A stretch of 64,000 bases of DNA from Escherichia coli (lineage in GTDB: Bacteria > Pseudomonadota > Gammaproteobacteria > Enterobacterales > Enterobacteriaceae): NCBI RefSeq assembly GCF_044647545.1, contig NZ_CP172818.1; one strand, given 5' to 3'. The first letter of the stretch is position 1. Each line of letters opens with the position of its first letter. Under the pieces are notes generated by a model. It saw nothing but the letters and a program-made list of their open reading frames with translations, was not told the origin of the DNA and did no database searches. Below, piece by piece: positions 55,936 to 56,640 of this stretch. The translations under genes and the position numbers were made by a program.

Positions 55936-56640
55936 GGGGTTGCCCTCCTTCCATCTCTCTCCTGTTCCTGCTCCCTCCCCCACCCCCCCCCAAAACCTCC
56001 CCCCACCAAAACCCAAACAAACCCCAACCCAAACAACCCCCCCCCCCCACCCACCCACACACACACCCCCACCCAGAAAAGAACGACCCAGACCAGCCAC
56101 GACAGCCCCGGCCGCCGCCGGCGCCCGGCGCGCGGGCCGCCGACACCCGCTCCGCGCCACACCATGAGTGATCAGACGACAGGGACGGCGGCGGCAGCGC
56201 CCAAAGCGTCAACCAGGCGCAGGCAAGCTGCACGCCGCGTGTGCCGAGGGATTTCACCGCGCAAAGCCACCGCCAGGCCGTCGTCACGGAGCCGCGGCAT
56301 AGGGCAGACAGGGAGTCCGCGCCACCGACGGCCGCGATGCCGCATGCCAAGTGCGTGACATCAGACGTGCAGCGCCACACGAAGCTCGTAGCCGTCTGTC
56401 GTGCTAGTGAGACATCAGCGCGCGTTAGCACCGCAGCCCCATGTCGCGCCTCCCCCCCGCCTCCGGCGCCCCCCTGTCCACCCGCCCCCCCGTCCCCCGG
56501 CACCGGGCCGCGCGCGGCCCCCGCGCGGCCCCCCACCCCCCCCCCCCGGGCGGGCGCGGCCCCCGACAGCCCGCCCGGCCCGGCCCCCCCGCGCCCGGCC
56601 CAGGGGGGGGGGGGGGGGGGGGGGGGGGGGCCCAGACCGG
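55936..56640. other. anomalous ~0.7 kb block, ~80% GC, homopolymer-rich, no credible gene; likely artefact or scar at a deletion junction
   Basis: C-runs of 9-12 (e.g. 55983-55991, 56037-56048, 56536-56547), (ca)5, and a G28 run at 56603-56630; only Pro/Gly/Arg-rich low-complexity ORFs on both strands; flanked by truncated yhaO and the AT-rich yhaC-like 3' remnant. Confidence 0.8.

Follow-up and report, generated by a model that had tools for sequence, protein, structure and literature searches.

The question raised by this locus is what the short, very GC-rich stretch between cyuP (yhaO) and yhaC in the Escherichia coli contig NZ_CP172818.1 (assembly GCF_044647545.1) is, and whether it belongs to the genome of the strain at all. 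We analyzed it within a window of 64,000 nt (the whole stretch of DNA under study, to which all positions refer). A sequence-only reading of this DNA had placed a GC-rich anomaly at 55936-56640, and the anomaly stands with its limits refined to 55937-56643: the block is 707 bp long, has 75.5% GC (A 16.7%, C 46.8%, G 28.7%, T 7.8%) and lies in a window that outside it has 51-52% GC and approximately 24% T. The GC content of 100-bp segments rises from 0.50 to 0.62-0.96 on entering the block, 200-bp GC exceeds 0.68 nowhere else in the 64 kb, and the T content of the block is the lowest among all 700-bp segments. The G28 run, the C runs of 9-12 nt and the (CA)5 repeat listed in that reading were all found where it had put them (Table 1); C9, C12, C12 and G28 are the only homopolymers of at least 9 nt in the 64 kb, and all are inside the block. 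Its description of the open reading frames as low-complexity read-through was also borne out, since all of those in the block, on both strands, encode only Pro/Gly/Arg/Ala low-complexity products. The block sequence carries no N or ambiguity codes, and an Rfam search found no RNA family in it, the nearest match being rnpB to its right. At the other end of the composition range, the most AT-rich stretch of the window is at 51500-51800 (200-bp GC 0.25-0.29).

Table 1. Features in and around the GC-rich block, by position in the 64,000-nt window (L001, the corresponding locus of NZ_AP022098.1).
Feature	Position	Strand	Basis or remark
cyuA (yhaM), intact, normal flank	54208-55518	-	436-aa ORF; annotated cyuA in relatives; 100% identical to NZ_AP022098.1
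cyuP (yhaO), 3' part	55546-55936	-	Same cut point as in IS1-bearing relatives; L001 3647-4045 is a partial amino acid permease
Left low-complexity stretch	55937-56092	none	C/T-rich, then C/A-only; holds C9, C12 and (CA)5
C9	55983-55991		Block, left stretch
C12	56037-56048		Block, left stretch
(CA)5	56056-56065		Block, left stretch
tdcE-derived core	56093-56453	+	K-12 MG1655 3260450-3260981, antisense strand of the gene; frame destroyed
IS1-like sub-stretch of the core	56346-56441	+	Resembles IS1 nt 278-381
Right low-complexity stretch	56454-56643	none	94% G+C; holds C12 and G28
C12	56536-56547		Block, right stretch
G28	56603-56630		Block, right stretch
IS1 right-end remnant, cattacc	56644-56650	+	Identical to L001 4807-4813
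yhaC, 3' fragment, normal flank	56651-56893	+	Alignment to relatives
rnpB (RNase P RNA), normal neighbor outside the anomaly	57033-57409	-	Rfam RF00010, 318.6 bits

The flanks belong to a natural clinical or environmental lineage. Their identity to NZ_AP022098.1 and to three of its sister genomes is 99.95-100%; for NZ_AP022098.1 this holds throughout 2501-55936 and 56644-64000, with 99.98% at 2501-38000, 99.95% at 45437-55936 and 100% at both 36499-45436 and 56989-64000. The flanks are of the lineage type; against K-12 the left one is only 98.2% identical and the right one only 89%. A consensus guided by the K-12 reference across the whole window was considered as a source of the assembly and rejected, because neither the flanks nor the intergenic region between exuT and exuR are K-12-type, both being of the lineage type.

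Alignment to the relatives defines both edges of the block to the nucleotide. On the left, cyuP homology stops at 55936 (...cacccacg), and the first error on that side is the loss of a single A at 55925, 12 nt ahead of the block; on the right, homology restarts at 56644 with cattacc, the 7-bp end of an IS1, followed directly by yhaC (gaaagcgtc). With a 2.8-kb query around the block, the flanks matched 5,425 of 5,426 complete E. coli genomes, and megablast gave no match spanning the block in any of the 5,426. Four genomes have the same breakpoints (NZ_AP022098.1, NZ_CP103468.1, NZ_CM169490.1, and NZ_LR130555.1): in these the flanks are approximately 2.83 kb apart, and an annotated 768-bp IS1 separates a truncated cyuP/yhaO from a truncated yhaC. 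Where the tdc operon is intact, tdcE is normally found between cyuP and yhaC; the closest relatives sharing both breakpoints have an IS1-associated deletion of that operon, and the ordinary K-12 tdc operon that had been expected here is not the right expectation.

Where yhaC of this allele is intact, gattat precedes gaaagcgtc, i.e., there is no IS1 end. Since cattacc is retained in the window and missing from intact yhaC, the window strain carries the IS1-yhaC junction of its sub-lineage. The block stands in place of 7 bp of cyuP (ctgcgcc) plus nt 1-761 of IS1, which in NZ_AP022098.1 occupy L001 4039-4806, so that the last 7 bp of the element are its only intact remnant in the window. The window and the cyuP'-IS1-'yhaC junction of the four relatives thus have in common both breakpoints and the terminal 7 bp of IS1 next to yhaC; unlike the relatives, the window has 707 bp of unrelated junk between them, without insA, insB or the left inverted repeat. 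An IS1 would show terminal inverted repeats of approximately 23 bp at both ends and the insA/insB' frames within about 768 bp; the best match to the left repeat in 55901-56660 has mismatches at 11 of 23 positions, and the 707-bp block holds only the Pro/Gly/Arg low-complexity frames. The biology of the locus is that of an ordinary IS1-associated tdc operon deletion, which is already present in several complete genomes.

The content of the block is a separate matter from its position. The sequence-only reading had recognized no E. coli sequence in it and had called it foreign-looking and of unknown origin; neither view survives, since the block sits exactly at the IS1 site of the relatives and its middle is a deletion-riddled, K-12-type E. 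coli tdcE. Megablast had missed this similarity, which was found with a sensitive (“distant”) blastn search of the middle of the block against 28 Gb of sequence (approximately 75% identity, E = 3e-21). The best 307 nt of tdcE align with 239 matches, 2 substitutions, 0 insertions and 66 deletions, and the deletion rate differs strongly by base: 56% for T (40/71), 19% for A and 8% each for G and C. Under a scoring scheme with cheap deletions, the match extends to the whole core, which aligns to 532 nt of tdcE with 358 matches, 3 substitutions (all T>C) and 0 insertions; 358 of the 361 core bases are thus in tdcE order, and 171 of the 532 tdcE bases are lost, in 98 runs of 1-9 nt. Compared with shuffled sequence, the match has z of approximately 38 for 56203-56443 and approximately 13 for 56091-56202.

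Retention depends on both the base and the position: C is nearly always kept and T goes first, G being lost leftward and A rightward. A flow-space-like scaling of T homopolymers is unsupported as a description of this pattern, since whole TTT runs are gone at three places in the core. As a source of the core, pflB was rejected; tdcE scores 122 bits and pflB 57, and the kept bases follow tdcE where pflB differs. Like tdcE (2-ketobutyrate formate-lyase) of K-12 MG1655, the core has that base order and a K-12-type allele, but it lies in the wrong genomic place, without the rest of the gene or operon, and its frame is destroyed: functional tdcE has a continuous frame of 764 codons, and what is represented here is 532 nt with 98 frame-breaking deletions and no tdcE-like open reading frame.

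The allele of the core could be assigned from the sites at which K-12 differs from the lineage. The lineage tdcE allele, taken from the closest relatives with an intact operon (e.g., IMT16316), differs from K-12 at 83 of 2,295 sites. Twenty of these sites fall in the matched segment (15 K-12-type, 1 lineage-type and 4 deleted), so that 15 of the 16 retained informative sites are K-12-type; the single exception is a T>C in the shoulder of the match, where confidence is low. The K-12 allele also fits better overall, with 358 matches and 3 substitutions compared with 349 and 12 for the lineage allele. Judged by these sites, the core template is a K-12-like (phylogroup A/B1-type) sequence. The allele counts and the lineage-type flanks together therefore suggest that the template was not the strain's own DNA, so far as the relatives indicate.

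These data bear directly on whether the block could be real, either as a horizontally acquired GC-rich fragment or as what remained of tdcE at the deletion junction after rearrangement or decay in vivo. The normal location of tdcE between cyuP and yhaC makes a remnant at this junction not absurd, and the sequence, as noted, is free of ambiguity codes; we nevertheless regard such an origin as highly improbable. Ninety-eight small deletions with 3 substitutions and 0 insertions in 532 nt correspond to no known mutational spectrum, the K-12-type allele is unlike the lineage's own tdcE, and the relatives with the same breakpoints carry a clean IS1. Tracts such as G28 and C12 would be highly unstable in vivo, which also counts against a real sequence here. 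A horizontally acquired islet would bring coding capacity or homologs elsewhere, or mobility genes or att sites; we found no homolog in the collections searched, no plausible open reading frame and no RNA family. A more specific version, in which base-skipping copying brought an acquired E. coli tdcE fragment into the IS1 junction together with non-templated C/G tracts, would again make the block real DNA, and we give it hardly any credence.

A second signal is superimposed on the tdcE core. The core, and especially its IS1-like sub-stretch (Table 1), resembles IS1 on the same strand as the IS1 of the relatives, with a score of 26-27 that is weak but significant. Null scores for this sub-stretch were 12.6-16.5. 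The native tdcE segment scores 15 against IS1 and random native chunks 14.2±2.4 (0/1500 reaching 27); when deletions were placed at random with the base counts kept, the score was 16.5±2.6 (1/1000 reaching 27). Moreover, the bases that were kept are preferentially those that can be aligned to IS1: in 56321-56443, 79 of 84 IS1-alignable tdcE bases are retained compared with 44 of 66 non-alignable ones (Fisher p = 2e-5), and for T alone the counts are 14/15 and 6/16. The test of IS1 guidance was post hoc, several orientations and segments having been tried first (simulated p of approximately 1e-3), and because of this we take the signal as supporting evidence and not as proof. The retention bias hints at a wrong backbone that was edited toward the true IS1 reads by a mostly base-removing step, for which such a bias would be expected.

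The same similarity might suggest a degraded IS1, in which case the block would be the element's own copy, read noisily. The block has the position of the element, a similar length (707 compared with 768 bp), the last 7 bp of IS1 and, as just described, an internal segment with weak but significant similarity. This explanation is largely refuted, however, because the core is a tdcE subsequence (99%), and its identity to IS1 is only about 63-67%, over 100-190 nt; in addition, the left inverted repeat is missing, the outer parts have no IS1 similarity, and the alignment to IS1 does not keep register with the boundaries. We therefore consider a degraded IS1 very unlikely. Garbled IS1 was likewise rejected as the main origin on alignment scores: symmetric local alignment gives a modest match, that to tdcE is far stronger, and whole segments scored under the deletion model resemble IS1 hardly more than the null does.

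A different possibility is that one raw read of very poor quality, which had suffered base-specific drop-out in base calling, was used unedited, with no polishing, and that its likeness to IS1 is a coincidence. This would be a variant of the artefact explanation and not a biological alternative. It agrees with the deletion-only pattern and its dependence on base and position, with the low-complexity runs at both ends of the block and with the fact that bridges made from one long read are possible. Against it, retention tracks IS1 alignability even within base classes, which raw drop-out would not give, and one would not expect a tdcE read to link cyuP' to IS1-'yhaC. We regard it as possible but on the whole doubtful, and clearly second to an artefact that includes an editing step.

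The two outer stretches are low-complexity sequence of which the origin is not assignable. When 55937-56092 and 56454-56643 were compared with IS1, the tdc region and cyuP, by cheap-deletion alignment and by two-letter projections, all scores were within the null. Searches of the block against plasmid and phage collections gave no match other than the tdcE similarity, and no vector match; an exact search of genome and metagenome contigs with a 39-mer of the block had no match, and none of the products of its open reading frames was present among 15 billion proteins.

These searches also bear on an origin by cloning or engineering, as a junction with dG/dC homopolymer tails, leftover vector sequence or an engineered scar; the sequence-only reading had entertained a homopolymer-tailed cloning remnant and a synthetic scar. 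C runs toward the left and G28 at the right end are what such an origin might leave, but clean complementary tails with a vector or a PstI site would accompany it: there is no PstI site, no vector, plasmid or phage match beyond tdcE, and the C runs, which lie within C/A junk, are interrupted. What would be the insert is a gene fragment depleted of bases, and its flanks, as noted, come from a natural clinical or environmental lineage. The likelihood of a cloning or engineering scar is, in our view, close to negligible.

Taken together, comparison with the relatives makes it very probable that 55937-56643 is not genomic DNA of the strain and would be an artefact of sequence determination or assembly, filling the place of IS1 between two accurate unique contigs. 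The true sequence at the locus would most likely be ctgcgcc plus the 768-bp IS1, as in NZ_AP022098.1. We favor an artefact of gap closure or assembly because the defect is local and lies at a repeat, the relatives have a clean IS1 and its 7-bp end remains, and because the filler is a base-depleted fragment of another strain's allele with IS1-correlated deletions and homopolymer-rich ends of unassignable origin, absent from every collection searched. We see no credible biological process that would give these features together. The defect is confined to a repeat boundary, its surroundings are accurate (flank identity), and its content, a K-12-type allele at an IS1 site, is not consistent with the lineage. 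The sequence alone had already suggested an artefact of assembly or sequencing and no functional system, and the IS1 site and the deletion-riddled K-12-type tdcE support that suggestion.

In the mechanism that we propose, a wrong template would have been put into the gap induced by the repeat; it may have come from a poor-quality or chimeric read of contaminating K-12-like DNA, or from reference-derived filler. A consensus or polishing step would then have partly edited this template, by deletions, toward the genuine IS1 reads of the strain, and the C-, C/A-, C/G- and G-only runs on either side would be base-calling or consensus junk. Poly-G and poly-C low-complexity junk is known from failed base calls; the block shares with it extended runs of G and of C and stretches of only two letters, but such junk leaves the tdcE core unexplained. 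To our knowledge, no standard platform error model gives pure deletions together with a strong T bias and a G28 run.

A literature search for a described artefact of this kind found only a general description of Unicycler (PMC5481147). As described there, hybrid assemblers bridge unique contigs over repeats and, where there is no graph path, use the long-read consensus directly; such a bridge may rest on one read only, and short-read polishing comes afterward (PMC5481147). The block resembles error-prone long-read bridges or gap fills of this type in having poor sequence exactly at a repeat between accurate contigs, with signs of later editing. It differs from them in that the filler comes from the wrong locus and from the allele of another strain, and its spectrum (deletions only, T-biased, with G28) is not known to us as a documented standard profile.

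Some points count against an artefact. Besides the unusual error spectrum and the post hoc nature of the IS1 signal, the K-12-type tdcE template needs an extra assumption, namely contamination or reference-derived filler, and the proposed mechanism does not account for the 707-bp length of the block or for the 7-bp offset of both its boundaries relative to the IS1 of the relatives.

Because the block is almost certainly an artefact and not real DNA of the strain, its interest is purely technical: it has no biological importance, and its value is that of a data-quality flag. It warns that in a near-perfect assembly a repeat can be occupied by 707 bp of fabricated sequence, some of it with the allele of a K-12-like strain. 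Left in databases, such blocks lead to spurious “novel” open reading frames and to false composition-based island calls, and in this case a real IS1 copy is hidden as well. Its signature—deletion-only changes, a T bias and a partial pull toward the true repeat—may help to spot similar filler elsewhere.

Several other features of the window distinguish it from its relatives. At 45436/45437 it is without a 5,342-bp CS1-type fimbrial operon (chaperone, major subunit, TcfC-like usher, and CfaE/CblD adhesin) that is present between exuT and exuR in all of the approximately 30 closest complete genomes. The exuT-exuR junction of the window looks like a clean empty site, with a K-12-like structure and lineage-type sequence, and just to the right of 45437 there is a cluster of small differences (A instead of G at 45492, and an extra TGC at 45504-45506). 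The absence of the operon could be due either to natural polymorphism or recombination or to another assembly omission. Downstream of rnpB, at 56952-56988, the window has one more copy of a tandem terminator-like repeat of approximately 37 bp (ctccaaaagcaaaaacccgccgaagcgggttttt) than NZ_AP022098.1 and IMT16316; K-12 also has several copies of this repeat downstream of rnpB. At 30459-30461 the window has GCC where NZ_AP022098.1 has CGG, which is equivalent to a 3-nt inversion. A C8 run at 16628-16641 has one C more than in NZ_AP022098.1, where ygjI is annotated as frameshifted; with the extra C, ygjI of the window may therefore be intact.

The truncated cyuP next to the block also has counterparts elsewhere. 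A 115-aa C-terminal CyuP product is found on more than 150 public contigs in several contexts, both with IS1 truncation as in the window and with a frameshifted or split cyuP beside an intact tdc operon; in view of these several contexts, disruption of cyuP appears to be recurrent in E. coli.
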